A DNA stretch of 64,000 nt from Bryobacterales bacterium (GCA_038319515.1 JBBQDH010000002.1:3318-67317); one strand, 5' to 3'; shown: positions 1 through 29,810, counted from the stretch's first letter. Program-made: numbers and translations. Notes: a model not told the origin generated them from the sequence alone.

Positions 1-269
1 CCCCCGAACGCCCGTTGCAGCAGGTCTCCGGCGAGCTGCTTTTGCGTCCATTCGCGCGGTTTGGTGGCTGCGTAGACATGCGCCCGCTGCTCCTCGTCAC
101 GTTTGACGAGTTGCTTGGTGGCCATTATTTGCAGGGTCTTGAGGACGGTTGTGTACTGCGTTGGTTTACGTTGGGAAACTTCGTCGTGGACTTCGCGGAC
201 GGTAGAGGGTCCGCGAGTCCAGAGGATGGAGAGGAGTTCGAGTTCGGAATCCGTGGGCAGGGCAAGCAT
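1..269 (-). CDS. BlaI/MecI/CopY-family winged-helix transcriptional repressor (C-terminus cut by window edge)
   Basis: Own translation of the minus strand from ATG (complement of 267-269): MLALPTDSELELLSILWTRGPSTVREVHDEVSQRKPTQYTTVLKTLQIMATKQLVKRDEEQRAHVYAATKPREWTQKQLAGDLLQRAFG. This fits the penicillinase-repressor N-terminal DNA-binding pattern. It is absent from the ORF track because it is truncated; plus ORF 15..353 is its antisense shadow. Confidence 0.8.
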   Translation of the reverse strand, partial: MLALPTDSELELLSILWTRGPSTVREVHDEVSQRKPTQYTTVLKTLQIMATKQLVKRDEEQRAHVYAATKPREWTQKQLAGDLLQRAFG

Positions 270-327
270 CTACGAAAACATTACTACGATGGTTTTCGTA
301 TGTCAAGCGGGAGGTTTGGGGCAGAGC

Positions 328-1035
328 TTACACGGTCATGCGCTGCCAGATAGCGCGACCGATGAAGAACGGTCCCATCTCCTGCATGAAGAACGACGTC
401 TGTTTCGTCCTGCGCATGGCCTGGACGCAGGCGGAGAGAGGGAATAGTTCTTTACCGATGAGGCCGATGACGAAGTCGTTATCGTGCTGGTCGATGCCGA
501 AGCTGGCGAGGCGGACGTCTTTGGCAAACCCGGCTTCTCCAAAACTGTGGCCGATTTTGCCGTGTTCGCGAAGGATGACAGACTGCTCTTCGGGCGGCAG
601 GGCATTGAACTCACCCTTACGACGGAGCGGATACCAGACCGCCCAGCGCCAATCAGGATCGGTGACGGATTTGCGGGAGCGGTCGATTAGCCATTCCTGG
701 AGATTGGGCTCGTGGCCGAGTGCATAAGTCCGACCCATCATGGTGTATTCAGGTTTCAGCGTGAGGTCCGCGAAAGGGCCCTGGTTCAGGAAAGGGCGGA
801 CGGTGGTGACGAAGTGATCGGGGTTGTCGCTCCACGTCACGAGGGCCACGCCGCGGGGGTCGTTGGCATCTTCATAGAGCACGGCTTCAAGCGACGAAGC
901 ATCGAGCGCGGCGGTTAGTTTGGCAGTGTCAGGCGCATTACCAAATGCCAGGAGCTGCATGAACAGCCGGCGGTCTGAGGTCTGTTGTTCGCCGGCGCGC
1001 ACGCCGCCTTTTTCTCTGAGATCGAGTTGTTCCAC
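328..1035 (-). CDS. chlorite dismutase (Cld/HemQ-like) family protein
   Basis: 235-aa ORF. Segments such as WAVWYPLRRKGEFNALPPEEQSVILREHGKIGHSFGEAG and FVIGLIGKELFPLSACVQAMRRT resemble Cld-superfamily proteins. Same strand as, and upstream of, the BlaI-like gene. Confidence 0.7.
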   Translation of the reverse strand: MEQLDLREKGGVRAGEQQTSDRRLFMQLLAFGNAPDTAKLTAALDASSLEAVLYEDANDPRGVALVTWSDNPDHFVTTVRPFLNQGPFADLTLKPEYTMMGRTYALGHEPNLQEWLIDRSRKSVTDPDWRWAVWYPLRRKGEFNALPPEEQSVILREHGKIGHSFGEAGFAKDVRLASFGIDQHDNDFVIGLIGKELFPLSACVQAMRRTKQTSFFMQEMGPFFIGRAIWQRMTV

Positions 1036-1039
1036 ACCC

Positions 1040-1726
1040 TCAGGATAAGGCCTGGAGTTTTGTCACGATGATGGGTGTGGTGGTTGGTTGAGCCGAACCG
1101 CCTGAGGGCTCCACGGAAATCGCCATGGCTGCGGCGTTGGCCGCGGGGCCGGGGCGCAGGTGGATGGCGGTGGAATCTGCGAGGGCGCTGAACGTGCCTG
1201 CCGGGATGGGGTTGCCGGATGCGGGGATAATCCACATTTCGAAAGTGCGGCCGGCGTCAAGCTTTGGCAGGTGCGCGGCGATGAAGAGCACGCCTTTCGT
1301 GGGGCTGACGTAGAAGCGGCCGCGGGCGGCGGGATCGCCGAAGGAGGCGTCTCTGGTGACGGGGTCGTTCAGGATGGAAAGAGCTTCTTCGAATTGTGGC
1401 CGGCTCGCGTTTGGCTTCCGCACAGACACGACAAGCAGCGCGATTCCGAGTGTGGCGGCCACCGCCCAGGGGAATGCCACCGCGAACCATTTGCGTGCGG
1501 GCTCCGGACTCACCATGGCGATGATTCGCCTGCGAAGACTCTTCGGTGGATCGACCGGTTGGGCCAGGGCCGCGAGATTCGCGACGGTCAGCATGGCGCT
1601 GCGTACGCCCCTCCTGCAGGCGTCGCAATCACCATCAAGATGCAGGGAAATTTCAGAACGTTCCGGCTCGTCGGCAGTGCCGAGTGCCCAGGCGCCGTAG
1701 TCGTTGCGGAGCTCCTCGCAGGTCAT
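1040..1726 (-). CDS. anti-sigma factor, RskA-like extracytoplasmic domain
   Basis: ORF 1040..1783 trimmed to the ATG at 1726, which overlaps the sigma-factor stop (ATGA, 1723-1726). It has an N-terminal cytoplasmic segment with HLDGDCDAC and one TM helix (WFAVAFPWAVAATLGIALLVV). The C-terminal domain (FEMWIIPASGNPIPAGTF...MAISVEPSGGS) is typical of anti-sigma-K/RskA. Confidence 0.8.
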   Translation of the reverse strand: MTCEELRNDYGAWALGTADEPERSEISLHLDGDCDACRRGVRSAMLTVANLAALAQPVDPPKSLRRRIIAMVSPEPARKWFAVAFPWAVAATLGIALLVVSVRKPNASRPQFEEALSILNDPVTRDASFGDPAARGRFYVSPTKGVLFIAAHLPKLDAGRTFEMWIIPASGNPIPAGTFSALADSTAIHLRPGPAANAAAMAISVEPSGGSAQPTTTPIIVTKLQALS

Positions 1727-2316
1727 GCGGAAGCCTCCTGCCCGAGCTCGTCGCGGAGCGCCTTCAGCGCGCTGCGAACCCACGTCTTCACTGTGCCGAG
1801 AGGCTGGCTCATGCGCTCGGCCATTTCGGTCTGCGAAAGGCCCTCGTAATAGGCGAGTTCGATGACCTTCTGCTGATTCTCATTCAGCTTTGCCATGGCC
1901 TTCCTGATGACGCGGGCGTTGTCGCGGTTGAGGATGCCGCGCTCCATATCGACGAAGAGCGAAGGGTGCTCCCGGACATCGAACTCATACGAGTTGCGCT
2001 GCATGCGCGAACCGGCGGACCGGATGTGATCGATTGCGCGATTGCGCGCGATGGTGAGCAGCCATGGGCCCAGCGCGCCGCGGCCTGCTTCGAAGGCGTG
2101 GGCGCGATTCCAGACGCGCAGGAAAGTCTCCTGAACCAGGTCTTCGGTGAGCGAGGAATCGCGGACCACGGCAAAGATAACGGAATACGCCAGCCTGCCG
2201 AAGCGATCATAGAGATCAGCCATGGCCTGCGGCTCTTTGCGCTGCAGGCGTCGGGCCAGTTCTTCATCGTTCTGGTCGCTCAGTTCAAGCGCAAGTATGA
2301 GGCCTGGAAGGATCAT
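1723..2316 (-). CDS. ECF (sigma-70 family) RNA polymerase sigma factor
   Basis: ORF 1723..2547 trimmed to the ATG at 2316 (MILPGL..., about 197 aa). Region 2 is DLVQETFLRVWNRAHAF...WLLTIARNRAIDHIR. Region 4 is QQKVIELAYYEGLSQTEMAERMSQPLGTVKTWVRSALKALR. Translationally coupled to the downstream anti-sigma gene. Confidence 0.9.
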   Translation of the reverse strand: MILPGLILALELSDQNDEELARRLQRKEPQAMADLYDRFGRLAYSVIFAVVRDSSLTEDLVQETFLRVWNRAHAFEAGRGALGPWLLTIARNRAIDHIRSAGSRMQRNSYEFDVREHPSLFVDMERGILNRDNARVIRKAMAKLNENQQKVIELAYYEGLSQTEMAERMSQPLGTVKTWVRSALKALRDELGQEASA

Positions 2317-2550
2317 GCGGACGGCACAGACTTGAGGATAGCTCTCTGCCTGGAGCCATCTGTCCGGAGGCCGCGAAGGGCGTTCTGCAATGCGCAGGCT
2401 CACACCTGTTGGTACGAGTGGCAGGCCGCAGCGGATGGATGGATTTTTTTTCTTGACATTCGTACGGAGTAACTCTATATATGAATCACACTCCGGTTTT
2501 TCGAAACCGTGACATTTTGATTCGGGAGAATCATTTCGACGAAGCATACA

Positions 2551-2572
2551 GGGGCTCCGGAAACGGAGCCCT
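2551..2572 (-). terminator. GC-rich hairpin downstream of the TIM-barrel gene (possible intrinsic terminator, weak U-tract)
   Basis: ggggctccg-gaaa-cggagccct forms an 8-9 bp stem 26 nt past the stop at 2598. On the minus strand it is followed by TGTATGCTTC, which is only moderately U-rich. Confidence 0.4.
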
Positions 2573-2597
2573 TTCCTATTGCGCTGTGTCAGCCTGG

Positions 2598-3536
2598 CTA
2601 AATCAGTTTGGCCGTGGACATCATGCCGCGCAACGCAGTCAGATCGCGTTTCATGGCGTTCATGATGTCGGCCTGGCTCATGGTGAGGCCGGTGCGGTTG
2701 CCTTTATCGGCACCGCCGAGCGGGTATTCGAAATGCACCTGGAAGGGCCCGTTGAAATGAGCTTCGCGAATCATGTCGAAGAAGCGCGCGAACTTCACCA
2801 TGCCCTCGCCGATGGGCTTCCACTCTGCCTGCCACTGACCCTTCGGATTCTTCTCCCAGAGGAAGTCTTTCACGGCAACACCGCGCAGGTAGTCGCCGGT
2901 GATGCGCAGGCTTTCCATCCAGCCGCCGAAGCCGCCTTCCACGGTGGCGTGACCGATATCGTAATTCACGCCGACCAGCTTCGGATCGAAGCCCCGGAGG
3001 ATCTCATGCAGGTCCCAGATGGACGCGCCGACAAGGTCGATTCCGGAGTGCGTGTGATACATGGCGGAGGCCTGATACCTGCCGTTCAATGCGGCCAGTT
3101 TGGCGACGCGGGGTTTGAAGTCTTCAATCTGATTTGCGAGTGGCTTGTCCTTCGTCCACTTATAGCCGCCCCAGCGGTAGTGATGAATGCCGAGTTCAGT
3201 CATGGTGGCGAGAACATCGTCGGCCCAGGGAGTGTCCGCGTCGCTGATGTCCGTTGTGAGCATGGGCACTTCGAGCCCGTGCTTACGGATGATGGAGACC
3301 AGAGCCGGCAGGTCCTGCCGCACACGCGCGGGTTCGATGTGGCCCTTGGCGCGGACGGCGAGATCGATGCCATCGAAGCCCATTTCTTTGGTCGCTTTCG
3401 CGAGCGCTTCACCTTCGAGGAATTGCAGGTGTTTCGAGAAGACGCAGATTTTCAGTTTCGAGGGCGCGGGCTGCGCGGGCAGGGCGGTGGCAGCGGCCAG
3501 GGTGGCGGCGGATTGCAGAAGGGTACGACGTGTCAT
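2598..3536 (-). CDS. Tat-signal sugar phosphate isomerase/epimerase (xylose isomerase-like TIM barrel) protein
   Basis: 312 aa. Twin-arginine leader MTRRTLLQSAATLAAATALPA. The body (FDGIDLAV..., HYRWGGY..., NYDIGHATVEGG...) fits AP-endonuclease-2/xylose-isomerase-like TIM barrels. Last gene of the ABC operon. Confidence 0.8.
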   Translation of the reverse strand: MTRRTLLQSAATLAAATALPAQPAPSKLKICVFSKHLQFLEGEALAKATKEMGFDGIDLAVRAKGHIEPARVRQDLPALVSIIRKHGLEVPMLTTDISDADTPWADDVLATMTELGIHHYRWGGYKWTKDKPLANQIEDFKPRVAKLAALNGRYQASAMYHTHSGIDLVGASIWDLHEILRGFDPKLVGVNYDIGHATVEGGFGGWMESLRITGDYLRGVAVKDFLWEKNPKGQWQAEWKPIGEGMVKFARFFDMIREAHFNGPFQVHFEYPLGGADKGNRTGLTMSQADIMNAMKRDLTALRGMMSTAKLI

Positions 3537-3561
3537 CTCGCTTCTCAGCTTACAGGGAAAG

Positions 3562-4500
3562 TTATACGGTGCGCCGTTTGCGCACCTCGTCGAGTGTCAC
3601 GGCCAGAATGATGACGGCACCGATAATCACCTGTTGCCAGTAATTGGAAATATTCAACAGATCGGCGCCGTTCGAAAGCAGGCCCATGATGAAGGCTCCG
3701 ATGAGAGTTCCGACGACGCTGCCTTCGCCGCCATTCAGACTGCCTCCGCCGATCACGACGGCAGCAATGGCCTGGAGTTCGTAGCCCTGCCCTGCGGTCG
3801 GTTGCCCGGTCATCAGGCGTGAGGCCTCGATCATGCCTGCTAGGCCCGTGAGCGCGCCGCCAATGGCGTAGACGGCGGTCATGTGGAAGTCCACCGGAAT
3901 GCCTGCGTAGACCGACGCGATCTTGTTGCTGCCGATGGCAAAGGCATAGCGACCGAGCCGGGTGTGTTCCAGCACGATGTGGACGAAGACCGCGCAGATG
4001 ACGAGCATCCAGGCGACGAACGGAATGCCCAGCAGACTGCCTTCGCCGAGGAACGAAAATCCGGCGGGGATTTTATGCACGGGCAGGCCGTTTGAAAAGA
4101 TGAGCGCGAGCCCGCGATAGATGCCCAGCGTGCCCAGGGTGACGACGAACGGCGGGATGCGCAGCCGGGTGATCAGCAGGCCGTTGAGAAAGCCGCAGAG
4201 CATGCCGACCGCGATGCCGATGAAGACGCCGACCACGATGGGATAACCGCGTTCGAGGGCGAGCGTGCCGATGAGGCCGGCGAGGCCCAGGATGGACCCG
4301 ACGGAAAGGTCGATACCGCCCGAGATGATGACGATGGTCATGCCCAGCGCCATGGTGTTGAAGACTGCGGTTTGGCGGAAGACGCTGGTCAGGTTGTTCG
4401 CGGTGAGGAAGTAGGGCGAGGCTATGGAGAGCCCGATGAAGAGAACGATCAGACTGAGGAAGGGGAGCAGGCGCTGCAGCAGAGCGCGGTCGAACTTCAT
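3562..4500 (-). CDS. sugar ABC transporter permease (CUT2, RbsC/AraH-like)
   Basis: 312 aa, polytopic and hydrophobic throughout. ITRLRIPPFVVTLGTLGIYRGLA is typical of ribose-type permeases. 4-nt overlap with the upstream ATPase gene. Confidence 0.85.
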   Translation of the reverse strand: MKFDRALLQRLLPFLSLIVLFIGLSIASPYFLTANNLTSVFRQTAVFNTMALGMTIVIISGGIDLSVGSILGLAGLIGTLALERGYPIVVGVFIGIAVGMLCGFLNGLLITRLRIPPFVVTLGTLGIYRGLALIFSNGLPVHKIPAGFSFLGEGSLLGIPFVAWMLVICAVFVHIVLEHTRLGRYAFAIGSNKIASVYAGIPVDFHMTAVYAIGGALTGLAGMIEASRLMTGQPTAGQGYELQAIAAVVIGGGSLNGGEGSVVGTLIGAFIMGLLSNGADLLNISNYWQQVIIGAVIILAVTLDEVRKRRTV

Positions 4501-5984
4501 GCGGCGGATTCCATAACAGCCAGTTTCATAATTTGTTCCTGTGTACAGCCGCGCGGCAGTTCGCCGGAGAGCCTGCCCTGCCGCATGACGACGATGCGGT
4601 CGGCAACGTGAAGGAGTTCGGGCAGCTCAGAGCTCACCATCAGAATGGCCGCGCCGGCGCGGGCGAGTTCACTCATCAGTTCGAAGACTTCTGATTTTGC
4701 ACCGATATCGATGCCGCGGGTGGGTTCGTCAAAAAGAAAAATGCCGGCCTCACGGAAGAGCCATTTCGCGATGACGACCTTCTGTTGATTGCCGCCGCTG
4801 AGCGTGCCGGCGAGCTGCGCGGGGGACGCTGCTTTGAGGCGCATCTTCGCGCCGAGTTCGGTCGACAGCCTGTTCTGGGCTTTGAGGTCGAGAAAGCCGA
4901 AGCGGCTGATACGCTCCACATTCGCCATGGTGACGTTGGCGCCGATGGGCAGGCGCAGGGCAAGGCCGGAAACCTGGCGGTCTTCGGTGACGAGCGCGAT
5001 GCCCGCTTTCACGGCGTCGCGCGGGGATTTGATTTGGGCAGGTTTGCCGTGGATGAGGATCTGGCCGGAGTCAATCGCGTCCATGCCGAAGATGGCGCGG
5101 CAGAGTTCGGTACGCCCTGCGCCGATGAGGCCCGCCATGCCTGTGATCTCGCCCTTGCGCAGCGTGATGGAAACGTCTTTCAGGTTCGAAGCCGCCACGC
5201 TGATACCGCGCACTTCCAGCGCCGGTGCGCCGGGGGCAAGGTGTTCGCGCTGGTAGATTTGCGCGACCTCGCGGCCCACCATATGGCGGATGAGCAGGTC
5301 GGTCGGAATGTCGGCCAGGTCGCCTGTATGGACCATGCTGCCATCACGCAGAACCGTAACTTTATCTCCGATGGCGCGGAGCTCTTCCATGCGGTGGGTG
5401 ATGTAGATGATGCCCATTTTGCGGGCCTTCAGATCACGCACGATGCGGAAGACCTGTTGCGTTTCTGTGTCCGAAAGAGAGGACGTTGGCTCGTCGAAGA
5501 TCAGCAAGCTGGACCCGTGCTGAATGGCCCGGCAGATTTCCACCATCTGGCGGCCCGCGGGGGTGAGGCGTCCCACGCGCCATTCGGCATTGAGGGGGAA
5601 GTTGTACTGCTCGATGAGGGCGCGCGCTTTTTCGGTGATCTCGCGGCGATTCACCCAGCCGAACGGAGCGCGCGGTTCGCGACCGAGGAAGATGTTCTCA
5701 GCCACCGTCATATGTGGGGCGAGAAGTGACTCCTGGTTGACCATCGCGATGCCCATGGCGGCGGCTTCAGCGGGGGAGCGAAGGAAGACTTCCTGCCCGT
5801 TCCAGAGCATGCGGCCGACGTCGCGCTGCACGATGCCGGCCACGATTTTCATGAGCGTGGATTTGCCGGCGCCATTCTCGCCGAGCAGCAGGTGGACCTC
5901 GCCTGCATTGACGGAGAGGCTCCCCTTGCGGAGAGCGGTGACGCCGCCGAAACGCTTTTCTATGTCCTGGAGTTCAAGCAGCAC
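4497..5984 (-). CDS. sugar ABC transporter ATP-binding protein, duplicated NBD (RbsA-like)
   Basis: 495 aa. Walker A GENGAGKST, Walker B LLIFDEPT, a second NBD with GLIGAGRTE, signature LSGGNQQKV and FLFDEPTRGID. Confidence 0.9.
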   Translation of the reverse strand: MLLELQDIEKRFGGVTALRKGSLSVNAGEVHLLLGENGAGKSTLMKIVAGIVQRDVGRMLWNGQEVFLRSPAEAAAMGIAMVNQESLLAPHMTVAENIFLGREPRAPFGWVNRREITEKARALIEQYNFPLNAEWRVGRLTPAGRQMVEICRAIQHGSSLLIFDEPTSSLSDTETQQVFRIVRDLKARKMGIIYITHRMEELRAIGDKVTVLRDGSMVHTGDLADIPTDLLIRHMVGREVAQIYQREHLAPGAPALEVRGISVAASNLKDVSITLRKGEITGMAGLIGAGRTELCRAIFGMDAIDSGQILIHGKPAQIKSPRDAVKAGIALVTEDRQVSGLALRLPIGANVTMANVERISRFGFLDLKAQNRLSTELGAKMRLKAASPAQLAGTLSGGNQQKVVIAKWLFREAGIFLFDEPTRGIDIGAKSEVFELMSELARAGAAILMVSSELPELLHVADRIVVMRQGRLSGELPRGCTQEQIMKLAVMESAA

Positions 5985-6004
5985 CGAAGCGCTAGTTTAT
6001 CGCA

Positions 6005-6085
6005 CTACTTTGAAACAACCAGCAGCACGAATGAGCCAGGCCTCAGGGTGCGGACCAGAACCTGACGGGGTCGGCGTTGGGCTTC
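6005..6085 (-). pseudogene. ghost 3' end of a YncE-like beta-propeller gene (frameshifted relic)
   Basis: The minus-strand reading gives KPNADP, then a 1-nt deletion, then VRTLRPGSFVLLVVSK-stop. The intact gene 7376..8377 ends KPNADPAKPPVRTMKPGSFVLLVVSQ-stop. No upstream body of the gene is present. Confidence 0.7.
6011..6085. repeat. left copy of imperfect ~75-nt direct repeat
   Basis: Hand alignment with 7382-7457 gives about 65 identical of 76 columns with one 1-nt indel. Shared blocks are tgaaacaaccagcagcacgaatga, ggtgcggacc and gcgttgggcttc. Confidence 0.8.
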
Positions 6086-6235
6086 CCAAGGCGATGGTCG
6101 TGAGCTGTTCCCCAGGCTTTGTGGTTTCTTATACACTTTAATGCAGCTTAATATTGACAGTAAAACCAGTACAAGCTGGTTTCGAAACGGCGACATCACC
6201 TTAATCTGATCAGGTAACGCCAAAGAGTGGTAAAA

Positions 6236-6553
6236 GTGAAACACAAAAGCCAATCTTTACTGGTTCATCTCGCGGCATTAGTAACGTCGTGCGTTTTTGG
6301 CGTGGGTATCGCCAACGCCACCTGTGGCCAAAATACCGGCTACGCATGTACAGGCACATACGGCGCAGGTGATGCTTGTGCGTGGCCCTGGACTTGTTAC
6401 GTGGCGGAATGTCAGTTCTCAGCGAGCACATGCTACAGTTCCCCGGGCGGAGGGATCGGCACTCCCTGCATCGACGGGAATTGCGGTGTAACTCAATGTG
6501 TGATTTTTCAACCTTCTAACCTGGGTAGCTGGTGCGCGTGCGGTAACTGTTAG
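6236..6553 (+). CDS. small secreted cysteine-rich protein (12 Cys in a ~77-aa mature part), unknown family
   Basis: ORF 6227..6553 has only GTG starts (6227, 6236); AGAGTGG lies just upstream of 6236. Sec-type leader KHKSQSLLVHLAALVTSCVFGVGIANA, then TCGQNTGYACTGTYGAGDACAWPWTCYVAECQFSASTCYSSPGGGIGTPCIDGNCGVTQCVIFQPSNLGSWCACGNC. Lies in an AT-rich patch. Confidence 0.6.
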   Translation: MKHKSQSLLVHLAALVTSCVFGVGIANATCGQNTGYACTGTYGAGDACAWPWTCYVAECQFSASTCYSSPGGGIGTPCIDGNCGVTQCVIFQPSNLGSWCACGNC

Positions 6554-6580
6554 CTGACTACGAAGAAGAGGATCTAAGTT

Positions 6581-7372
6581 ATGAAGAAAACGGTAATTTT
6601 TATCGTGGCGATTGGCATGGCTGTTTCGTATCTGGCCACACGTCAAAGTATTGTTTCGGCGCAGTCTCCCGCGGCGTTCACGCAGGTGTACAACATCTCC
6701 TGGAGAAACCTGGAAAATCCTGGAAAGAACAAGGACGACCGGGAAGTTCTCGCTCAGAAGGCTGATGGCTCAACCAGCCACGCGTCAACCTTTGCCGGTT
6801 CACCCGATCTGGTAAACCGGGCCATTGAATTGGCAACGGGAGAAAGGATCGATGTCAACGATCTTCTGAAAATGAAGAGCACACACTACGCGACTCCTGA
6901 TGTTGTCACGGCCCGAAAGGTCAATCGGCTCACGCCGGCTGCGGATTGCAGTAATTTCAAGGAGAGGGAAGACAACAAACCGGGTCGGGTCTTATTGGGA
7001 AATTTCACATTTCTGAATCATCCGGTAAAGAGGTTTACTGTTACTTTTCAGGCAAACAGTGGAGACCGGATACGCGTAACATCCAGTTACGCTTCTGATT
7101 TGAATTGTGCTGAAGTGGATCGGCTGGAGGAAACTCTCGAGCCTGGAACGGAACGGGTTCTTAAGACTCAGTCGCGCTCCGCTTCCGTGATCACGTCGGG
7201 GCCGCCGGATGAGAAGTATTTCAATATTCCTTCTGATTATCTCGAGGTGCCGCCGAGTACGCTCAACATTGCCTGGGGTAAGCACTTCGGCGTTGATGCA
7301 GACCAGCACATGATCGACGGGTGGGTCAATGTGCTGGACAAAAAGTACTACGAGGCGCAAAAGAAGCAGTAG
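6581..7372 (+). CDS. secreted hypothetical protein (263 aa)
   Basis: ATG preceded by GAAGAAGAGGA. Signal peptide MKKTVIFIVAIGMAVSYLATRQSIVSAQS. I recognise no motif. Lower GC than surroundings (line 6961-7020: 28/60 by hand). Starts 27 nt after the Cys-rich ORF. Confidence 0.7.
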   Translation: MKKTVIFIVAIGMAVSYLATRQSIVSAQSPAAFTQVYNISWRNLENPGKNKDDREVLAQKADGSTSHASTFAGSPDLVNRAIELATGERIDVNDLLKMKSTHYATPDVVTARKVNRLTPAADCSNFKEREDNKPGRVLLGNFTFLNHPVKRFTVTFQANSGDRIRVTSSYASDLNCAEVDRLEETLEPGTERVLKTQSRSASVITSGPPDEKYFNIPSDYLEVPPSTLNIAWGKHFGVDADQHMIDGWVNVLDKKYYEAQKKQ

Positions 7373-7375
7373 GTT

Positions 7376-8377
7376 TCACTGTGAAACAACCAGCAGCACG
7401 AATGAACCCGGCTTCATGGTGCGGACCGGGGGCTTGGCGGGGTCTGCGTTGGGCTTCATGTCGTACTCGGCGGCGGGCAGGAAGATCTTCTTCGTCTTCG
7501 GGTCCATTCCCATGGTCTTGGCACCGGCCTGTGTGGTGAGAGCGCCGCCTTCATAGACGTCGGCGGACTTCTGCAGGAACGTGTTCAGAACACCCTGCCC
7601 GGTAGACACGAGGACGGTCTTGGTGGCTGCGTCGAACTCCGCCCAGTCAGCGCCGGTGCCGATGGGGAAGCTGGTGATGACCTTGCCGGACTTCGCGTCC
7701 ATCACGACCATCTTCGGTTCCTTGCGGCAGGCGATGAAGAGCCGACTGGTCTTCGCATCGTAGGCAAGACCGGTGGGGGTCTCGGCAATGCCGATGGGAT
7801 AACGGTGTTTCACTTCGAGCGATTTGGGGTCGAAGGCCACTACTTCAGCGGTGTCTTCGCTGTTGACGTAATAGAGGCCGTCGCTGCCTTTGATGGCCTG
7901 TTCGCCGTCGCCTGCCAGCTTCACGGTTCCTGCCACTTCTCCGGTCTTTGCGTCGATGGCGGTGATGTCGTGCGAGCCATGGTTGTTGGTGAAGACGCGG
8001 TTGGTGGCGGCGTCGTACCAGATGCCATCCGGCCCCTTGCCGACATCAATCTTTTTGATGAGTTTCAGGGATTCCGGCTCGAACATGCTGACTTTGTTTT
8101 CGCGGCCGTTGCTGGTGAAGCCGTGTTTTTCGCCGGGCGCGATGGCTACGCCGTGCACGCCTGGTGTATCCGGGATGGTGCCGATGAGCTTACCGTTATC
8201 GGCGTCGACTACCTCCACTTGTGTGGCGTGTGAGATGTAGACGCGGCGGGCGGCGCTGTCGACAGTCACGTAGTCCCAGCCGCCTGTGCCCGGCAGCGGG
8301 TAGCGTTCAATAATTTTGTAATCTGCTGCGCCTGACAGCGAAACCATTAAAAACAATCCGGTTACAACGCTTTTCAT
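7376..8377 (-). CDS. YncE-like / YVTN-family beta-propeller repeat protein, secreted
   Basis: 333 aa. Signal peptide MKSVVTGLFLMVSLSGAA. Repeated ~40-aa units (GGWDYVTVD..., GVHGVAIAP..., GPDGIWYDA..., PTGLAYDA...) are typical of YVTN/YncE seven-bladed propellers. Confidence 0.8.
   Translation of the reverse strand: MKSVVTGLFLMVSLSGAADYKIIERYPLPGTGGWDYVTVDSAARRVYISHATQVEVVDADNGKLIGTIPDTPGVHGVAIAPGEKHGFTSNGRENKVSMFEPESLKLIKKIDVGKGPDGIWYDAATNRVFTNNHGSHDITAIDAKTGEVAGTVKLAGDGEQAIKGSDGLYYVNSEDTAEVVAFDPKSLEVKHRYPIGIAETPTGLAYDAKTSRLFIACRKEPKMVVMDAKSGKVITSFPIGTGADWAEFDAATKTVLVSTGQGVLNTFLQKSADVYEGGALTTQAGAKTMGMDPKTKKIFLPAAEYDMKPNADPAKPPVRTMKPGSFVLLVVSQ
7382..7457. repeat. right copy of imperfect direct repeat (functional 3' end of the beta-propeller gene)
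   Basis: See 6011-6085; the offset between the two copies is 1371 nt. Confidence 0.8.
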
Positions 8378-8447
8378 ATTCGAATTCTCCAGGTCAAGCG
8401 TGGCAGGCGGAACTGAAATTTCGCTGAATGAACGTTCACCGATCGCT

Positions 8448-9368
8448 TCAGCCCATCAGCTGGATGCTTTGGTCGATGAGCTTGCCGTTTTCTTCCCAGA
8501 CGTCGCCGTCGCCTTCCCATTCGATGGAGAAGTAGCCTTTATAACCCGCATTCTTTGCGATGGCGAAGGTGCGTTTGAGATCGGCATGGTAAGTCTTGCC
8601 GCCGTCGATTTCATCGTCCTTCACGTGCGAAATGTTGTAGGCGCGTTTAAAGAGGCCAGCCATGGCGGCGTAGTTGTAAGGAGCGTCGCCCTTCAGCATG
8701 GTGTTGCAGAAATCGGGCAGGGCGCGCAGCCACGGGTGGCGGGCCTGATCAAGAACTTTGGTGATGAAGAGGGCATCCTCTGTTTTCGGATCGTCATTTT
8801 CCAGATTGATGACGACGCCTTTCGACGCCCCGTATTCGGCGACGGGGAAGAGGGACGTTGTGGTGAGGCTGAGATCAGGAGTGGCTGTCTTATCGCCCTG
8901 AATGTGAATGCGAACGCCGGGGCAATCGACGGCAACCGCGATATCGACCCATTTCTTCGCGTTGTCGATGGCGAGCGTGCGTTTCGCGGGGTCGGGATCG
9001 TACATGCTTGCGCCTACGCTGGTGGGGATGTTCACGATGCGGGACCCCGCGGCTTTCACGGCGTCGCGCAGTTCGTTCAGGTAGGCGGGTTCGGTGGATG
9101 GGAAGTGCTGGCCGAGCAACTCCACGTTGTGAACCTTGTATTTCTCCGCCATGCGCGCGGCGAAGTCTTTCAGGGCGATGAATTTGGCATCCGGATTACG
9201 CTTGCGGTTGTTGGGGGTGTCGATCAGGGAGCGGAAGGAGTAAGAGGCGATCGCGATACGCGCCGGCGGGTCCGTGGGGAAACGGAAGTTCGGGGGCGCC
9301 GGGGCGGCCTGCGCGCTGGTACTGAGGGCGAGAGTGGAGGTGATCAGAAAGTCACGGCGGGTCTGCAT
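8448..9368 (-). CDS. Tat-signal sugar phosphate isomerase/epimerase (xylose isomerase-like TIM barrel) protein
   Basis: 306 aa. Leader MQTRRDFLITSTLALSTSAQA. Body with VHNVELL..., VRIHIQGD..., VINLENDD..., YFSIEWEG is a TIM-barrel sugar isomerase-like pattern. Confidence 0.8.
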   Translation of the reverse strand: MQTRRDFLITSTLALSTSAQAAPAPPNFRFPTDPPARIAIASYSFRSLIDTPNNRKRNPDAKFIALKDFAARMAEKYKVHNVELLGQHFPSTEPAYLNELRDAVKAAGSRIVNIPTSVGASMYDPDPAKRTLAIDNAKKWVDIAVAVDCPGVRIHIQGDKTATPDLSLTTTSLFPVAEYGASKGVVINLENDDPKTEDALFITKVLDQARHPWLRALPDFCNTMLKGDAPYNYAAMAGLFKRAYNISHVKDDEIDGGKTYHADLKRTFAIAKNAGYKGYFSIEWEGDGDVWEENGKLIDQSIQLMG

Positions 9369-9396
9369 GCAGTTTGTAATTTACACTACGGGAACC

Positions 9397-9732
9397 ATGT
9401 CACAATTCGCGAAAACACCCGAACCGCCCTACTATGCGGTGATCTTCACGGCGCAGCGAACACCCGTGGATGGGGGCTACGCGGAGACGGCCGACCGGAT
9501 GGTGGAACTGGCTGCGGCGATGCCAGGGTATCTGGGGATTGAGAGCGCGCGGGGTGCGGACGGGTTCGGGATCACGGTGAGCTACTGGGCCAGCGAAGAG
9601 GCGATAGTGAACTGGAAGCGGGAGGCGGAACACGAGCGGGCGCAGGGCGTGGGGAAGAGCGCCTGGTATGAGCATTACGAACTGCGCGTGGCGAAGGTGG
9701 AGCGGGCTTACAACGGGCCTGCCGGACGGTGA
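9397..9732 (+). CDS. antibiotic biosynthesis monooxygenase (ABM) family protein
   Basis: ORF 9274..9732 trimmed to MSQFAKTPEPPYYAVIFTAQRT...YLGIESARGADGFGITVSYWASEEAIVNWKREAEH. Small ferredoxin-like ABM fold pattern. An alternative ATG at 9367 would overlap the divergent gene start. Confidence 0.7.
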   Translation: MSQFAKTPEPPYYAVIFTAQRTPVDGGYAETADRMVELAAAMPGYLGIESARGADGFGITVSYWASEEAIVNWKREAEHERAQGVGKSAWYEHYELRVAKVERAYNGPAGR

Positions 9733-10353
9733 CTACTTAAGTTCCGGTTTGGCGCTGAAGCGGGCTCCCAGCGCGCCGCCTGCCGTGCAGACTCCCACCA
9801 CTGCTACGAACGCGAGCAGGAGGGTAAACAGCATGCCTGCGGCCAGCATGGGTGGATCGTTCACCACCTGGGCCATGCGGGGATCCTGTTGCACAAGCAG
9901 TTCCATGAATTGCTTGCCGGTGAAGGCGATGGTCAGTGTGAAAATGATCGCCATGCTGACGAAGGCGAGCACGCCGGTGATGGAGCCCAAACGCGCGCCT
10001 GCTTTGATGCTGAGCGTTTTGCCTGTGAGTCGGCGGTAGAGCAGAACGCCGCACCAGCCGGCGCCCAGCCACCAGAACACAAAGAAGAAATTCAGGCCCG
10101 GAATCATGTCGAGAAACATGATCGCGAGAGACATCAGAAATCCAACGCGCAGTGCAACCGGGTTGCTGAAACTGACCGGCATCTGTGAAAGCGTCGCCAG
10201 CAATTCGGCTTGCGGGGTCAGCGTGGGTGCAGGTGTCTGCACTGCAACAATCAGCTCCGGCTCTTCAGACATCTCAAACGTGGGTCTGCCGCAGCGATGG
10301 CAGAACCGGGCATCTTCAACGAGCTGTGTTCCGCAGGTGCAGTAGGCTGGCAC
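9733..10353 (-). CDS. zinc-ribbon domain membrane protein
   Basis: 206 aa. N-terminal CTCGTQLVEDARFCHRCG (CxC...CxxC zinc ribbon) followed by about 4 hydrophobic helices. Confidence 0.6.
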   Translation of the reverse strand: MPAYCTCGTQLVEDARFCHRCGRPTFEMSEEPELIVAVQTPAPTLTPQAELLATLSQMPVSFSNPVALRVGFLMSLAIMFLDMIPGLNFFFVFWWLGAGWCGVLLYRRLTGKTLSIKAGARLGSITGVLAFVSMAIIFTLTIAFTGKQFMELLVQQDPRMAQVVNDPPMLAAGMLFTLLLAFVAVVGVCTAGGALGARFSAKPELK

Positions 10354-10358
10354 AACTT

Positions 10359-10919
10359 CTAGTTTGACGCAGGGTCGCCGATGGAGGCAATTCCGATGTG
10401 CGTGCCGTCGTTCTTCCCGCGAATTCCGACGATCCGTTTGTGGCCGCCTTCCCTGAGCTCAAAGCGGACAGCGCCGTCCCGATCCGTGACCACCAGCCAG
10501 TTGGGCAGCTGGGTCCGGTACCAGGCGAGCACCTTCAAAGGCGAGTCCTGTGTGAACAGTTCCGCGGCTGCGAAGGCGACACTCCTGTCAGCCTTGCCGT
10601 CGGCAGAGACCCACTCGAAAGAGGCAACGCCGGAGTTCTTTTGGCGGGTGGCGCCGGGATAGACGGGCAGCCCGATGGTGGCGGGGTCCAGATCTTCGTG
10701 CGCGCGGATGCTGACGTTGCCGGCGGGTGTGGCAATGGAAAAGTCGGAAAAGTCATCGCCACCATGGCGGTGGGTGGTTTGCACGCGTACATTATTGGCG
10801 ATATAGAAGGCTGTGCCGACCGACACAATCACAATGGACACAAAGATAAAAAGTAGTACGCCCAACACACCGCCCCTGTTTGCGTTCCGGGTGGGTCGCG
10901 AATCTGAAGAAACTCTCAT
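10359..10919 (-). CDS. membrane-anchored hypothetical protein
   Basis: Lower part of the 657-aa track ORF, trimmed to ATG at 10919 (MRVSSDSRPTRNANRGGVLGVLLFIFVSIVIVSVGTAFYI...). One TM anchor and a soluble domain. Ends 5 nt upstream of the zinc-ribbon gene. The rest of the track ORF is antisense to the dehydrogenase gene. Confidence 0.6.
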   Translation of the reverse strand: MRVSSDSRPTRNANRGGVLGVLLFIFVSIVIVSVGTAFYIANNVRVQTTHRHGGDDFSDFSIATPAGNVSIRAHEDLDPATIGLPVYPGATRQKNSGVASFEWVSADGKADRSVAFAAAELFTQDSPLKVLAWYRTQLPNWLVVTDRDGAVRFELREGGHKRIVGIRGKNDGTHIGIASIGDPASN

Positions 10920-10994
10920 GAGCCGACCTCCAAAATTATTGTTACGCAATTCCGGCGGCGCGGGTTCGGGCAGGTTTGTGATAGCTTGCTCCTG

Positions 10995-11963
10995 ATGGAC
11001 CAAATTACCGTTGTTGTTCTGGGCGACCCGGCAGAGCCCGAGTTGCAGAAGCTGGAGGCGCTGCGCCCCGGGGTGAATTTCACCATATCGAAGACCGCCG
11101 ACGGACTGGGCGATGCGGTGCGGGATGCGCGCGTGCTGTTCACCACCATGGGCAACCGGAAGGAGGTCGGGCTGGTGCTGGAACGCGGGGCGAAGCTCGA
11201 ATGGATCCAGTCGCGCAGTGCGGGCCTGGACGGATTTCTGAGCCCGGAATTGATTGAGAGTCCGATTCCGCTCACCAATGGCAGCGGTGTGTTCAGCCAG
11301 TCTCTGGGAGAGTTCGTGTTGTTTGGCGCGTTGTATTTCGCGAAGGATATTCCGCGCATGCTGCGGGCTAAAGCGGCGCACAAGTGGGATGTCTTCGACG
11401 TGTGTGAGCTGAGCACGCAGACCATGGGCATTGTGGGCCATGGGGACATTGGGCGCGCCGCGGCGAAACGCGCGAAGGCGATGGGGATGAAGGTGCTGGC
11501 GTTGCGCCGTACTGTTACGCCGCGCCCGGGCGATGAGGATGTGGATCGCGTTTACGCAACGGCGGAGTTGCATGACATGCTGCCGGAGTGCGACTACGTG
11601 GTGGCCGCGGCCCCGTTGACGCCTGCGACGAAGCATATGCTGAGCACGGCGGAGTTTGGCCGGATGAAGCCTTCGGCGGTGGTGATGAATGTGGGGCGCG
11701 GTCCCGTGATTGACGAGGCTGCCCTGGCGGAAGCCTTGCGGAGCGGCGTGATTCGCGGTGCGGTGCTGGATGTGTTTGAAGTGGAACCGCTGGGCGGGGA
11801 CAGCCCGCTTTGGGATATGGACAATGTGCTGATTTCGGCGCATACGGCCGACCACACGCAAACGTGGCTCGAAGATTCGGTTGATTTTTTTATGGCGCAG
11901 TTTGCGCGTTGGCGCAGCGGGGAAGCGCTGCAGAATCTGGTGGATAAGCGCGCGGGGTATTAA
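10995..11963 (+). CDS. D-2-hydroxyacid dehydrogenase family (NAD-binding) protein
   Basis: MDQITVVVLGD... Rossmann motif GIVGHGDIGRAAAKRAKAMGMKV, plus VMNVGRGPVIDEAAL and LDVFEVEPL...NVLISAHTA, the catalytic pattern of D-isomer-specific 2-hydroxyacid dehydrogenases. Confidence 0.85.
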   Translation: MDQITVVVLGDPAEPELQKLEALRPGVNFTISKTADGLGDAVRDARVLFTTMGNRKEVGLVLERGAKLEWIQSRSAGLDGFLSPELIESPIPLTNGSGVFSQSLGEFVLFGALYFAKDIPRMLRAKAAHKWDVFDVCELSTQTMGIVGHGDIGRAAAKRAKAMGMKVLALRRTVTPRPGDEDVDRVYATAELHDMLPECDYVVAAAPLTPATKHMLSTAEFGRMKPSAVVMNVGRGPVIDEAALAEALRSGVIRGAVLDVFEVEPLGGDSPLWDMDNVLISAHTADHTQTWLEDSVDFFMAQFARWRSGEALQNLVDKRAGY

Positions 11964-12000
11964 GGCCGGCGACAGGATCGCCGCCGCCACGCGCCACGCT

Positions 12001-14409
12001 TTACGCGACCAACAGCAGTTTCTTGCTGCGCTTCGCATCGTACATGCGCTCGTCGGCTTTTTCGAGCAGTGCTTCGGCGTCGGAACCGTCGTCCGGATAG
12101 CGGGAGACGCCGGCGCTGATGGTGATGCGTGCAGGGCACTGCGATTCGGCGGGCAGGTTCCTGCCGATCTGGTCGAGGCGGGCGAGAATTTCCGGCAGGC
12201 TTTGGGTGGCATCCGGCATGATGAGCACGAACTCATCACCGCCCAGCCGTGCCGCGAAATCCCCGGCTCGGCAACTGCGGCGCAGAGCGCGACCAACGCA
12301 TTCCAGGATGCGGTTTCCGGCAATGTGACCATACTCGTCGTTGGCTTTCTTGAAGCCGTCCAGGTCCATCACGACAACGGTGAAATTCCCCTCCCGCCGC
12401 GCCGTGTTTGAGACCTCGGCTTCCAGGTGCCTGAAGAGCGAACGCGCATTATGGAGGCCGGTCAGTTCATCCGTATCGGCCGCGCTGTTGGCGCGTTCAA
12501 AGCGCACGGAGTTTTGAATCGCGATACCTGCCTTCGGCGCAATGGCAAGCAGAATTCGTCGGTCATCCTGACTGAAAGCCTCAGCCTTCAGGTGGTAGAG
12601 GGTGAGCACGGCGATGACGCCGTCACGGCCGCGAATCGGGACTGCAATAGCGGACCGGAGCGGCGTGACCATGCGGGGGTCATTGAGATAGCCGGGCTCC
12701 ACGGCAGGGTTGCCGTTGACGACAGGCAGATCGTTTTCCGCCACCCAGCCGGACAACCCCTGGCCCAGGGGAATTTCCAGAGAGCTGAGGAGCCTGAAGC
12801 TCTCACCCTTGACGAACTTTGGCACCAGTTTGTCGCCATCCAGCAGGTAGACGGCAATGGCATCATGGTTTACAATTTTGCCCAGGCGCACGGCAAGCAG
12901 GGCGAGGGTTTCTTCAAGGCTGAGTGAACTACCCAGATCGTTGGTGAGTTCCAGGAGCAACTGAAACTCGCGGCGTGCGCCGGAGATTGCCAGGCTGAAG
13001 TGTGCGGTGGCGGAGGGCGCACTCACCGGAGCGGATTCCGCGAAGCCGGTGGCGGGAGCCAGCCCGCGCTCCACTTTCACGTTGGAAGACAGCTTCACAT
13101 AATCCGCGGTCTCATCCCTTGCCTTCTGTTCGAGTTCCCGGAAACGGCGGTCGAGAATTGCCACAACAATGGGGTCGAACGCCTTGCCTGCTTCATCGCG
13201 GATGATCTGCATGGCGGCTTCCAGCGGCATGGCGGTGCGGTACTGGCGATTGGACGCAAGCGCATCCAGGCAATCCACGGCGGAGAGAATACGGGCTCCG
13301 ATGGGGATTTGCTCACCGATCAGGCCATCGGGATAGCCGGTGCCATCGTACTTTTCGTGGTGCGAGCGAACGATGGGGACGACGGGATAAGGGAAGTGAA
13401 CGCGTTCCAGAATTTCCGCGCCCACCACCGGATGGACCTTCATCTTTTCGAACTCATCCGGCGTCAGCTTGCCGGGTTTGGAGATGATGTACTCGGGCAC
13501 GGCGAGTTTGCCCACGTCATGCAGAAGAGCGGCGGCTTCGAGCGCCTGCATCTCAAGAGCGGACAGGTGCAGCTCTTTGCCGATTTCTGAAGCGTAGACC
13601 TGCACGCGGCGCAGGTGAGCGGCCGTGGTGTCGTCCTTGGCGTCAATCGCCAGGGCGAGGGTTTCGATGGTCCGAAGATGCAGTTGAGCCATCTCTGTAA
13701 TGTGCTTGCGCTGCTCTTCAAACCGGCCGAGGTAGACGCTGTAAGAACGGTAGACCAGGTAGAGCGGCGGAATCGCCACAATGAGCGCAGGCCAGCCCAT
13801 GTAGCGGTTCATGAAGTGCAGGCCGCCCGCAATCAGGCCGCCCACCAGGTACTGCGGGGAGGTCCACAGATAAGAGTCCCGCCAAATTGTCAGCAGGCCC
13901 GTGGATGAGGTCACGCTGATGATGCCGGCGACCGTGACGGTGTTCATGATGAAGTACAGCAGCGACGCCATGAGCAGGCTGAGCGCACCGGTGGGGTCGA
14001 CGTAGTTCAGCGTCTGCGACTGGAGCGCAAGGTCCGCAGCCATCACGGGAAAGGCCATGGCGAACATGTTGAACAGTAAGTGGTACCACTTCGGCCGCTG
14101 ATCCGCATGAATGAAGCACTGGCCGAGTGCGCTGGCCACGCCAACGATCATGCCGGATGCCCGCCCCAGATTCATCAGTGCCGCGAGGATCACAACATAG
14201 TTCATGGAAAGAGTAACGAAGATGCCGGGCAGGCGAATTTTGAGTCGGGACGCGAGGATTGCCGCGACGATGTAAAAGAACGTGCGACGCACGTTGTCAA
14301 TCGCCAGATCAGTGGAAGCGATAGAAGTGATGCTGAACCATGCCCCGCCCAGAACAATCAGAGCCCAGTAAAAATGGGCTTTGCGGGGCATTTGAATAAA
14401 TTCCGTCAT
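12001..14409 (-). CDS. membrane-bound HD-GYP / GAF / GGDEF multidomain c-di-GMP signalling protein
   Basis: Start chosen at ATG 14409, 7 nt after GGAGGT. N-terminal polytopic membrane domain. HD-GYP motifs LLHDVGK and HHEKYDGTGYPDGL. GAF-like segment. GGDEF domain with RLGGDEFVLI and an RAGD (RxxD) I-site five residues upstream. Confidence 0.9.
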   Translation of the reverse strand: MTEFIQMPRKAHFYWALIVLGGAWFSITSIASTDLAIDNVRRTFFYIVAAILASRLKIRLPGIFVTLSMNYVVILAALMNLGRASGMIVGVASALGQCFIHADQRPKWYHLLFNMFAMAFPVMAADLALQSQTLNYVDPTGALSLLMASLLYFIMNTVTVAGIISVTSSTGLLTIWRDSYLWTSPQYLVGGLIAGGLHFMNRYMGWPALIVAIPPLYLVYRSYSVYLGRFEEQRKHITEMAQLHLRTIETLALAIDAKDDTTAAHLRRVQVYASEIGKELHLSALEMQALEAAALLHDVGKLAVPEYIISKPGKLTPDEFEKMKVHPVVGAEILERVHFPYPVVPIVRSHHEKYDGTGYPDGLIGEQIPIGARILSAVDCLDALASNRQYRTAMPLEAAMQIIRDEAGKAFDPIVVAILDRRFRELEQKARDETADYVKLSSNVKVERGLAPATGFAESAPVSAPSATAHFSLAISGARREFQLLLELTNDLGSSLSLEETLALLAVRLGKIVNHDAIAVYLLDGDKLVPKFVKGESFRLLSSLEIPLGQGLSGWVAENDLPVVNGNPAVEPGYLNDPRMVTPLRSAIAVPIRGRDGVIAVLTLYHLKAEAFSQDDRRILLAIAPKAGIAIQNSVRFERANSAADTDELTGLHNARSLFRHLEAEVSNTARREGNFTVVVMDLDGFKKANDEYGHIAGNRILECVGRALRRSCRAGDFAARLGGDEFVLIMPDATQSLPEILARLDQIGRNLPAESQCPARITISAGVSRYPDDGSDAEALLEKADERMYDAKRSKKLLLVA

Positions 14410-14802
14410 GATCATTACCTCCGGGATGCGCTCTGGAAGGCGCCGCACCGGTACAAGGCGAGTGTGGCATCAATGGAGTGTAAGGAATAGTTATCTACTG
14501 TTAACCGGGGGTCACATACGGTACCCGTTACTGATGCGCGGGTTCCGCGAACAGGGTCATGGTACCGGAAGATCAATGCCGTCAATAGTCCCTGGTTATA
14601 TACGGGGAAAGGACTCCGGGTTTGGGCGTTGTCCAGCGTTTTCAATAAGGTTTTAAGTCAAGGTCGGGCCGGGAGCCTTCAAAGTGGAGTCCCGGCAGTA
14701 CTGCCTTCGTTCATCACCACGCTAACTGACGGCATCATATTCAAAGTCTGTTTGGCGTGCAAGACTCGCAACAGATCAAAAAAAGGAAGTCCCGGTGATC
14801 GT

Positions 14803-28556: not shown

Positions 28557-28636
28557 GTAGATTCCTTACCGGGGGGACGAGAAACCCGGTTTGGTAGATG
28601 ATATATCACTCAGGAGACGGTGTCGAGGGGCAGCGT

Positions 28637-29425: not shown

Positions 29426-29562
29426 TGTCTGCCAAAACCTATTATGTTAGCTATCGAAGCTGGCACTTTGCATGACCTGCCCGAGGCGCTCCTGCCTGCC
29501 AGCGCAGTCACACCTCGGGCGTAGTAACCCGGCTTTCGGCGAACACCTTGCTGCTCGTTAGA

Positions 29563-29793: not shown

Positions 29794-29800
29794 CTTCTCC

Positions 29801-29810
29801 TCACCTCCTT
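29801..29810 (-). promoter_or_regulatory. Shine-Dalgarno AAGGAGGTGA for the Cys-rich peptide gene, embedded in the last codons and stop of the thioredoxin gene
   Basis: The minus strand reads ...gaa agg agg tga ggagaag ATG. This is a 9-10 nt complement to the canonical 16S 3' end. Confidence 0.7.

Follow-up and report, generated by a model that had tools for sequence, protein, structure and literature searches.

In the 64,000-nucleotide stretch of DNA from Bryobacterales bacterium (GCA_038319515.1 JBBQDH010000002.1:3318-67317), which is called the window here and from whose first letter all coordinates are counted, a gene for a YncE-like 7-bladed beta-propeller protein of 333 amino acids (7376-8377, minus strand) is separated from the gene for a sugar-type ATP-binding cassette (ABC) transporter ATPase (4497-5984, minus strand, GTG start) by a small AT-rich islet (6086-7375), and a copy of the propeller gene's 3' end lies on each side of it. 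How did the islet get there, and what left a gene end on both of its sides? The original prediction, made from the sequence alone, regarded the arrangement as the scar of site-specific integration, left by a decayed element or by a cassette that was moved through an unrecognised mechanism. Comparison with related contigs shows that the islet was truly inserted, exactly at the propeller stop codon, and that the copy on its left is the displaced original tail of that gene, which is decaying neutrally.

The repeat, the islet and the empty site

The two copies of the direct repeat, at 6005-6085 and 7376-7457 on the minus strand, agree in 68 of 82 columns with one 1-nt gap. Two blocks, offset by one base, make up most of the match: 6007-6056 with 7378-7427 (50 nt, 90% identity) and 6063-6085 with 7435-7457 (23 nt, 91%). 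The slightly narrower repeat that had been aligned by hand (6011-6085 and 7382-7457, 65 of 76 columns with one 1-nt indel) was reproduced exactly, and the similarity is far above chance, since the local alignment score of 98 compares with 17.0±2.3 (maximum 30) in 500 shuffles. This is the single instance of a long direct repeat of its type within the window. The duplicated segment extends from GAAGCCC, which starts with the third base of codon Met307, as far as the stop codon, and no similarity was detected past the repeat ends (p = 0.43 upstream, 0.10 downstream). A longer ghost, or the relic of a whole-gene duplicate, was rejected on the basis of tblastn and end tests, in which no propeller similarity was present past 82 nt. 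As had been proposed, the propeller gene really ends in the right copy, and the left one is a frameshifted ghost. The right copy is contiguous with the 333-codon reading frame, encodes ...KPNADPAKPPVRTMKPGSFVLLVVSQ before a TGA stop codon, and is identical in a second islet-bearing contig (L021, see below). The left copy has lost one nucleotide, which shifts its frame; 20 nt separate its end from the GTG with which the ATPase gene starts.

The 1,290 bp between the copies are compositionally foreign. With a GC content of 0.509 (z = -3.9), the islet is poorer in GC than every other 1,290-nt segment of the window (mean 0.599, sd 0.023); z for the tetranucleotide distance is 4.3, and the GC content at third codon positions is 0.54 and 0.59 in its two open reading frames (ORFs) vs 0.76-0.82 in six host genes. 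The drop in composition first noticed by hand counting was therefore borne out in windowed analysis; one of the counts, 21/60 for 6121-6180, is exact, whereas the other, for 5881-5940, should read 41/60 and not 42/60. The two genes that had been seen between the copies are the plus-strand ORFs ORF108 (6227-6553, 108 aa, with an alternative GTG start at 6236) and ORF263 (6581-7372, 263 aa). They are preceded by an AT-rich non-coding left end of 141 bp (6086-6226, GC 0.447), and the stop codon of ORF263 lies 3 nt from the stop codon of the convergent propeller gene.

The islet is missing from 12 contigs of close relatives (94-97% identity). In one of them, the 11.8-kb JGI contig L001, a propeller homolog with 96% identity is followed by its stop codon, 20 nt and the ABC ATPase gene. 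By blastn, positions 1-4837 of L001 correspond to window 12221-7378 and positions 4758-7285 to window 6085-3559; the 80 nt shared by the two matches (4758-4837) align with both 7457-7378 and 6085-6006, and the window carries a clean 1,372-bp insertion. The same double-match pattern was found in the eleven further contigs (L002 and L023-L032), so that the propeller gene adjoins the ATPase gene directly in all 12 contigs and the proposed insertion of foreign-looking DNA holds. The flanks are syntenic with the islet-free contigs over at least 6 kb on the left and at least 8 kb on the right.

The empty site can be recovered in full from the two junctions, and no recipient base was lost. Tail and spacer are identical across all 12 empty alleles, and so is the 20-nt spacer of the window (5985-6004, minus strand), which in the empty site extends from the propeller stop codon to the ATPase start and now lies beside the ghost. 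The ghost matches the tail of L001 at 73 of 82 positions and the right copy at 68 of 82; its last codons read ..VVSK and TAG as in the empty alleles, against ..SQ and TGA in the functional copy. Because ghost, spacer and ATPase start follow one another just as they do in the empty site, and because the ghost ends in SK and TAG, the order of tail, spacer and ABC gene predates the islet.

Thousands of homologs of the propeller protein were found, the named ones from Bryobacterales and Bryobacteraceae. A scan of genome contigs with this protein returned only two distant relatives (37-41% identity) with no synteny, a metagenome scan returned six loci of which none was orthologous, and three others that are more distant than the homolog of L001 (P0003, P0004 and P0007, 72-75% identity) lie in unrelated contexts and give no outgroup for the locus. 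The family is very large, with 7,167 matches among 8,000 candidates scored, and occurs in unrelated gene contexts. The homologs P0001-P0120 keep a highly conserved C-terminal tail, ..RTMKPGSFVVLVVGK[S], which could in principle be a shared homology target in many genomes.

Islet haplotypes, recombination and age

A look-up of the ORF263 cluster led to a second copy of the gene, whose product differs in two amino acids and which is present on JGI contig L021 (8.5 kb) and Logan contig L022. L021 corresponds to window 4902-13466 at 98.4% identity, islet included, and the same minimal 1.29-kb content is shared by all three islet-bearing contigs. Three independent assemblies thus contain the islet, which makes it a polymorphic insertion and rules out an artefact of assembly. 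All proximal derived changes (GTC, the 1-nt deletion, TTCT, CCCTG and AGG) are common to the ghosts of the window, L021 and L022, which means that the insertion happened once.

The distal ghost, the spacer and the first ATPase codons (about 5967-6040) are far more decayed in L021 and L022, where a 3-nt insertion and a TAA stop codon occur, and the ghost of L021 differs from the empty allele in 21 columns within window range 6000-6085. From about 6040 leftwards to about 5640 the window itself hardly differs from the empty alleles, and its synonymous divergence (dS) from L001 is 0.04 in ATPase codons 1-100 and 0.2-0.3 further in. In the simplest reading of these patterns, the left flank of the window, including the distal half of the ghost, was overwritten by homologous recombination with an islet-free allele (approximate tract 5640-6040), with the crossover inside the ghost.

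Divergence elsewhere around the locus is also strongly mosaic. The dS between the window and L001 ranges from 0.03 in the permease gene to 0.305 in the propeller gene. Between the window and L021 there are 3 differing sites in 6225-8411 and 68 in 4902-6224; the 141-bp left end of the islet has 6 differences against 3 in the 1.1 kb of coding islet. Three-way comparisons reveal tracts of differing ancestry. As the divergence is so mosaic, homologous recombination appears to be frequent among co-occurring populations, and the islet is polymorphic in a strongly recombining population. The unusual part of the case lies in these population data, which comprise empty sites, two diverged islet haplotypes and a ghost that is partly overwritten.

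Some further differences were recorded over the same region. In 100-codon windows, dS between window 1-13466 and L001, L021 and L023-L032 spans 0.03-0.49. Differences from L021 cluster at 8564-8659 and 10716-10905, and a 15-nt indel lies at 11970-11984. Intergenic indels of about 37 nt (3574-3611) and about 20 nt (8407-8471) distinguish the window from L001, and the sole other length difference in the 12-kb syntenic block is one of 7 nt near 11922-12071.

The ghost serves as a built-in neutral clock. By our reading of the alignment, the 82 nt of the unconverted ghost of L021 contain 2 indels and about 11 substitutions specific to the ghost, a divergence comparable with the propeller dS of 0.305. 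Given this similarity to synonymous change in the adjacent gene, the insertion dates from about the time when islet-bearing and islet-free haplotypes separated at this locus. At the same rate of decay, the coding part of the islet (1,119 nt) should have gathered about 27 indels and several stop codons, or about 3 indels at the lower confidence bound for the indel rate. ORF108 and ORF263 stay open despite this expectation, which implies purifying selection on both; the cargo genes are real and kept intact by selection, and for ORF263 there is independent support from its relatives, invariant residues and structure model (see below). An 82-aa ORF that runs through the ghost (6005-6253, minus strand) was considered as possibly retained for translational coupling to the ABC gene and was rejected, being interrupted in L021; because it is not conserved there, no function is given to it.

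Mechanism of the insertion

Searches for mobility machinery were negative throughout. Neither islet ORF contains a recombinase or transposase domain by Pfam, NCBIfam, PHROG, PADLOC or, for ORF263, fold search, in agreement with the early remark that the islet lacks an integrase; a crude search for the tyrosine-recombinase box-II motif over the whole window was negative, and no recombinase is present in the syntenic flanks. No inverted repeats were found at the islet ends, and no tRNA, Rfam family, sigma-70 consensus promoter or flanking terminator at the islet. The repeat core had no match in viral contigs, nor had the islet and ORF263 among plasmids, phages and BFVD. The cassette was likewise not found at other loci in the collections searched, the ORF263 cluster being confined to this locus and a metagenome scan with ORF263 being empty, and none of 13 other propeller loci carries a ghost tail; a search for the cassette elsewhere, flanked by similar gene-end duplications, had been suggested as a check. 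Insertion, duplication and displaced tail can be retained from the integration scar as first described, whereas its site-specific character is not supported, there being no recombinase in the islet or the syntenic flanks. A transposon, insertion sequence or miniature inverted-repeat transposable element was rejected for lack of terminal inverted repeats, for a duplication of 82 bp and not 2-15 bp, and for lack of a transposase domain. Just outside the duplication, a 21-nt inverted repeat (5779-5799 and 7474-7494, 81% complementary) lies inside the coding regions of the ATPase and propeller genes and is probably due to chance.

The structure is the scar of a single, fairly old insertion-duplication, which we tentatively ascribe to a Campbell-type single crossover. 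A small circular DNA would have carried the cassette beside an 82-bp copy of the propeller tail, and one reciprocal crossover between the chromosomal tail and the circle, performed by host homologous recombination (RecA) and not by an element-encoded recombinase, would have placed a tail on both sides of the cassette. The islet would now be a passive passenger, to be spread or removed only through recombination of its homologous flanks. This homologous route is favoured because nothing site-specific is present, because the distal boundary is located where homology between propeller loci would end, because the two tails belong to the same lineage, and because a recombination tract ends inside the ghost in this very population. 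The distal repeat boundary is the stop codon, at which homology between propeller loci with different downstream neighbours would cease. The right copy and the ghost of L021 share G49, G64 and C77 against all empty alleles, so that both tails come from one and the same lineage, a distant host being no source of either. At the last propeller residue the family consensus is K, as in the empty alleles; the idea that the last 6 nt of the real tail were derived from the islet was dismissed, since the ghost of L021 shares the C at the last codon.

The minimal homology length for RecA is a few tens of base pairs, and the 82-bp tail is competent for homologous recombination, because the conversion tract from the islet-free allele ends inside the ghost of the window. 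When a circular plasmid with a truncated gene end was used experimentally, 56 of 60 integrations were single crossovers, in which duplications of 109-950 bp flanked the insert, while homology-facilitated illegitimate recombination (HFIR) gave deletions (PMC3240628). The islet resembles the former outcome, with a shared segment directly duplicated around the insert and the recipient bases intact. Such a pattern is the mark of one reciprocal crossover between a chromosome and a circle that bears a single copy of the segment, both when an integrase drives it, as for e14 at icd (PMC13626634), and when it is plainly homologous. It differs in that Campbell-type insertion-duplication is known mainly from laboratory constructs and episomes, whereas the present case is natural, has only 82 bp of homology and calls for a hypothetical circular donor. 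Because a plain homologous single crossover of circular DNA leaves the same scar (PMC3240628), the unrecognised mechanism that had been invoked is not required. The event is of a known kind, and no new mobility mechanism is revealed by it.

Several points weigh against such a crossover. No circular intermediate, donor locus or native junction between tail and cassette was found, and the origin of an 82-bp host-like tail beside a foreign cassette is unexplained, which is the weak point of every model. At 82 bp, the tail is a short and inefficient substrate for RecA. RecA and site-specific crossover both give hybrid repeats, so the two cannot be separated by sequence, and a recombinase may have acted in trans, since only 64 kb of the genome is covered. 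The three-way comparison of tails involves very few sites and an unrooted star, so that three-way distances do not decide whether the real tail is donor-derived, and gene conversion between the copies after the event could give a false impression of common origin.

The scar might instead descend from an integrative element, that is, a prophage, an integrative and conjugative element (ICE) or an integrative and mobilizable element (IME) that carried a surrogate propeller 3' end in its attP site and afterwards lost its integrase and most of its length by internal deletion, like the decayed ICEs and IMEs known as cis-mobilizable elements (CIMEs), or was served by a recombinase in trans. We consider this origin rather unlikely, and the RecA crossover is somewhat favoured over a lost integrase. 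The layout is the classical one, in which the gene extends into the insert and a C-terminal pseudogene stands at the far end, as with e14 and icd/icdC (PMC13626634), and elements that lack integration genes and keep attL and attR are documented (PMC5704250). The gene-attached copy has its own stop codon (TGA vs TAG in the empty alleles) and a different last residue, the insert is foreign in composition, and the 12 empty sites would represent unoccupied attB. However, no recombinase gene or even a fragment was detected in the 1,290 bp or the syntenic flanks, all three islet-bearing contigs hold the same minimal 1.29 kb, copies of the cassette elsewhere, ghost tails at the 13 other loci and viral, phage or plasmid matches are all wanting, and the ghost shares lineage-specific states with the real tail, so that the supposed surrogate would not have come from a different host. 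The elements e14 and phage 21 at icd in E. coli do resemble the islet in their functional 3' end at one edge, C-terminal pseudogene on the opposite edge and direct repeats (PMC13626634), but e14 measures 15 kb, has its own integrase and excisionase and excises on SOS induction, whereas the islet measures 1.29 kb, contains two secreted-protein genes and no recombinase, and neither excision nor a second integration site was seen. The layout, with repeats present and the recombinase absent, would also fit CIMEs, which keep attL and attR and have lost their integration and transfer genes, if the repeats were att sites; CIMEs are recognised, however, through their kinship with functional ICEs or IMEs that occupy the same att site, and the islet has no known relative of this kind, accretion partner or integrase. 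The decayed element of the original prediction is possible, with no positive evidence for it.

Repair or replication in situ, in which a break or stalled fork took up foreign DNA and 82 bp were duplicated, either by filling in a long staggered break in the course of end-joining or by template switching with resumption 82 nt behind the departure point, is judged unlikely. It would explain why both copies come from the tail of the same lineage, why no recipient base besides the duplication was lost or gained, and why a recombinase is absent. Under a random break, however, a boundary exactly at the stop codon would be a coincidence, partly excused by selection for an intact gene, and microhomology at the junctions cannot be scored without the donor. 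Moreover, we know of no documented bacterial process that typically gives target duplications of 82 bp, which counts against repair of this type. Still less probable is one-sided HFIR of a linear donor comprising the 3' part of the propeller gene and the cassette, with the illegitimate joint 82 nt upstream of the recipient stop codon. HFIR has been proposed for displaced 3' ends in type VI secretion system (T6SS) effector and Rhs loci (PMC5361080), and the propeller block beside the islet is the most diverged one (dS 0.305, the adjacent gene reaching 0.43 at its 3' end), as would fit a donor tract. HFIR nevertheless characteristically removes about as much recipient DNA as it inserts (PMC3240628), while here 82 nt were duplicated and nothing was deleted, and blocks of high divergence also occur away from the islet, for instance in ABC codons 100-450. 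The orphan 3' ends of Rhs, CdiA and T6SS effector loci are similar in that an incoming module, joined to the resident gene by way of common sequence, pushes the old 3' end downstream as a fragment (PMC5361080); the tails displaced there are different toxin domains with immunity genes, whereas the islet left a plain copy of the same tail and its cargo is convergent and does not form the tip of the gene. Finally, the layout might not stem from insertion at all, being ancestral, the relic of a tandem propeller paralog lost in the relatives, or an assembly artefact. A precise loss of the islet is conceivable in principle, through recombination of its 82-bp repeats, but the ghost leads on into spacer and ABC start exactly like the tail of the empty site, propeller similarity ends at 82 nt, the tails of the empty alleles carry none of the ghost mutations, and the structure recurs in three independent assemblies with diverged ghosts, which makes this last reading barely credible.

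A bolder version of the homologous crossover supposes that the cassette is a recombinase-free mobile unit, whose portable homology arm is the captured 82-bp tail of a host gene that is widespread and conserved; we hold this to be very doubtful. RecA acting between the tail copies would excise a 1.37-kb circle, which could re-enter at the same tail of related genomes by single crossover, and the predicted circle junction would read ...CATCGCCTTGG/GAAGCCC...TTTCACAGTGA/AACCTACTG, slashes dividing islet left end, tail and islet right end. If this were true, a passive homology-arm cassette would be moving through a naturally recombining soil population, and circular forms or other tail-flanked cassettes, if found, would raise the significance of the locus.

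Cargo proteins and surroundings

ORF263 belongs to an unnamed family of proteins of about 260 amino acids. Among 1.84 billion representatives, 95 relatives were detected at E ≤ 1e-3; they are approximately 250-280 aa long, align end to end, and reach 39% identity at best. The residues G63, C123, C176 and P209 are invariant in the family. The sequence of ORF263 had no match in Pfam, NCBIfam (including the LolA-type models), PHROG, PADLOC or PDB, and DUF4412 was matched by 1 of 41 relatives. An AlphaFold (AF2) model built with the family alignment attained a predicted local distance difference test (pLDDT) of 90.6 and a predicted template modelling score (pTM) of 0.83; only with the alignment was a usable model obtained, the single-sequence run having a pLDDT of 32. 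In Foldseek the model retrieved LolA, LolB, LprG, RseB and MucB (E 1e-7 to 1e-3, TM 0.38-0.55), and the best matches were LolA and LolB (E about 1e-7, probability 1.0). ORF263 is accordingly predicted by modelling to be a secreted protein of LolA-like fold, an open beta-barrel with a helical plug. With the LolA/LolB/LprG/RseB superfamily it shares this predicted fold and an N-terminal signal-like helix; it departs from it in the absence of a family match at the sequence level, in TM values of only 0.38-0.55, and in having two invariant cysteines and an additional helical region at the C-terminus.

The N-terminus of ORF108 resembles a signal peptide and its mature part (about 78 aa) contains 12 Cys, so that it probably represents a small secreted cysteine-rich protein. 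No homolog was found at E ≤ 1 and no match in Pfam, NCBIfam, PHROG, PADLOC or PDB. In L021 it is conserved with one substitution, although it was not called there as a gene.

Similar pairs are suggested at two other loci. On contig L020, a signal-peptide protein of 97 aa with 10 Cys precedes the ORF263-family gene P0131; around this gene (770-4029), a pair consisting of a PemK toxin and a DUF2281 antitoxin-like protein and an extracytoplasmic function (ECF)-type sigma factor (Sigma70_r4_2) are followed by the Cys-rich and LolA-fold genes. On L017, a Cys-rich frame that appears to be split by a 1-nt frameshift (170-345) lies just upstream of P0122, the closest relative of ORF263 (39% identity). 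This frame ends in ..DWCACNAD before its stop codon, which resembles the end of ORF108 (..SWCACGNC), and could be a decayed partner gene or an assembly error. No significant sequence similarity was detected between ORF108 and the Cys-rich readings of L020 or L017, so that a conserved two-gene module is argued from analogy and from the look-alike on L017; there are hints that the Cys-rich and LolA-fold genes form a recurring module, possibly linked to a sigma factor. No flanking repeats were found at the L017 locus. The DNA contexts of most ORF263 relatives are short contigs, and near a relative on L018 a DUF3738 fragment was seen. The islet thus draws attention to an uncharacterised family of secreted LolA-fold proteins, sometimes with a small cysteine-rich partner, as accessory genes in Acidobacteria-like soil bacteria.

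In the islet-free relatives, the propeller and ABC genes, 20 nt apart, are presumably co-transcribed. The oppositely transcribed islet now separates them, and the ABC genes would have to depend on a promoter in or near its AT-rich left end, where the promoter of ORF108 is presumed to lie and a replacement promoter for the ABC genes possibly as well. The duplication of the tail keeps the propeller ORF whole and the upstream context of the ABC gene in place, and the locus is a natural example of a tiny accessory islet entering a compact operon with neither neighbour damaged.

The ATPase gene is followed by an ABC permease gene (3562-4500, minus strand), and a xylose-isomerase-like TIM-barrel gene (8448-9368, minus strand) lies beyond the propeller gene. 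Within 2598-9368, the ABC ATPase and permease genes have no adjacent canonical solute-binding protein gene; the genes flanking them are the propeller gene, whose product has a signal peptide, and two TIM-barrel genes of the xylose-isomerase-like type, of which one has a twin-arginine translocation (TAT) signal. The propeller protein weakly matches the 'PQQ-dependent catabolism-associated beta-propeller' model (PQQ, pyrroloquinoline quinone) of ABC-linked systems (58.8 bits, far below the cutoff).

Farther along the window, a second atypical stretch at 28600-31200 has a GC content of 0.53-0.55 and a tetranucleotide distance as extreme as that of the islet, and no recombinase was seen in it. It contains genes for a DUF3738 protein (28637-29425), an ORF without family (29801-30328) and a 123-aa protein with only sigma-70 region 4 (30481-30852), all on the minus strand. 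A dip in GC content at 14.1-15.0 kb coincides with a divergent intergenic region and the N-termini of a 601-aa subtilase-like ORF (14629-16434, plus strand) and a GGDEF/HD membrane protein (12001-14448, minus strand). In the former, an 18-nt tandem coding repeat at 16258-16382 gives rise to NVVWGS repeats at the C-terminus.

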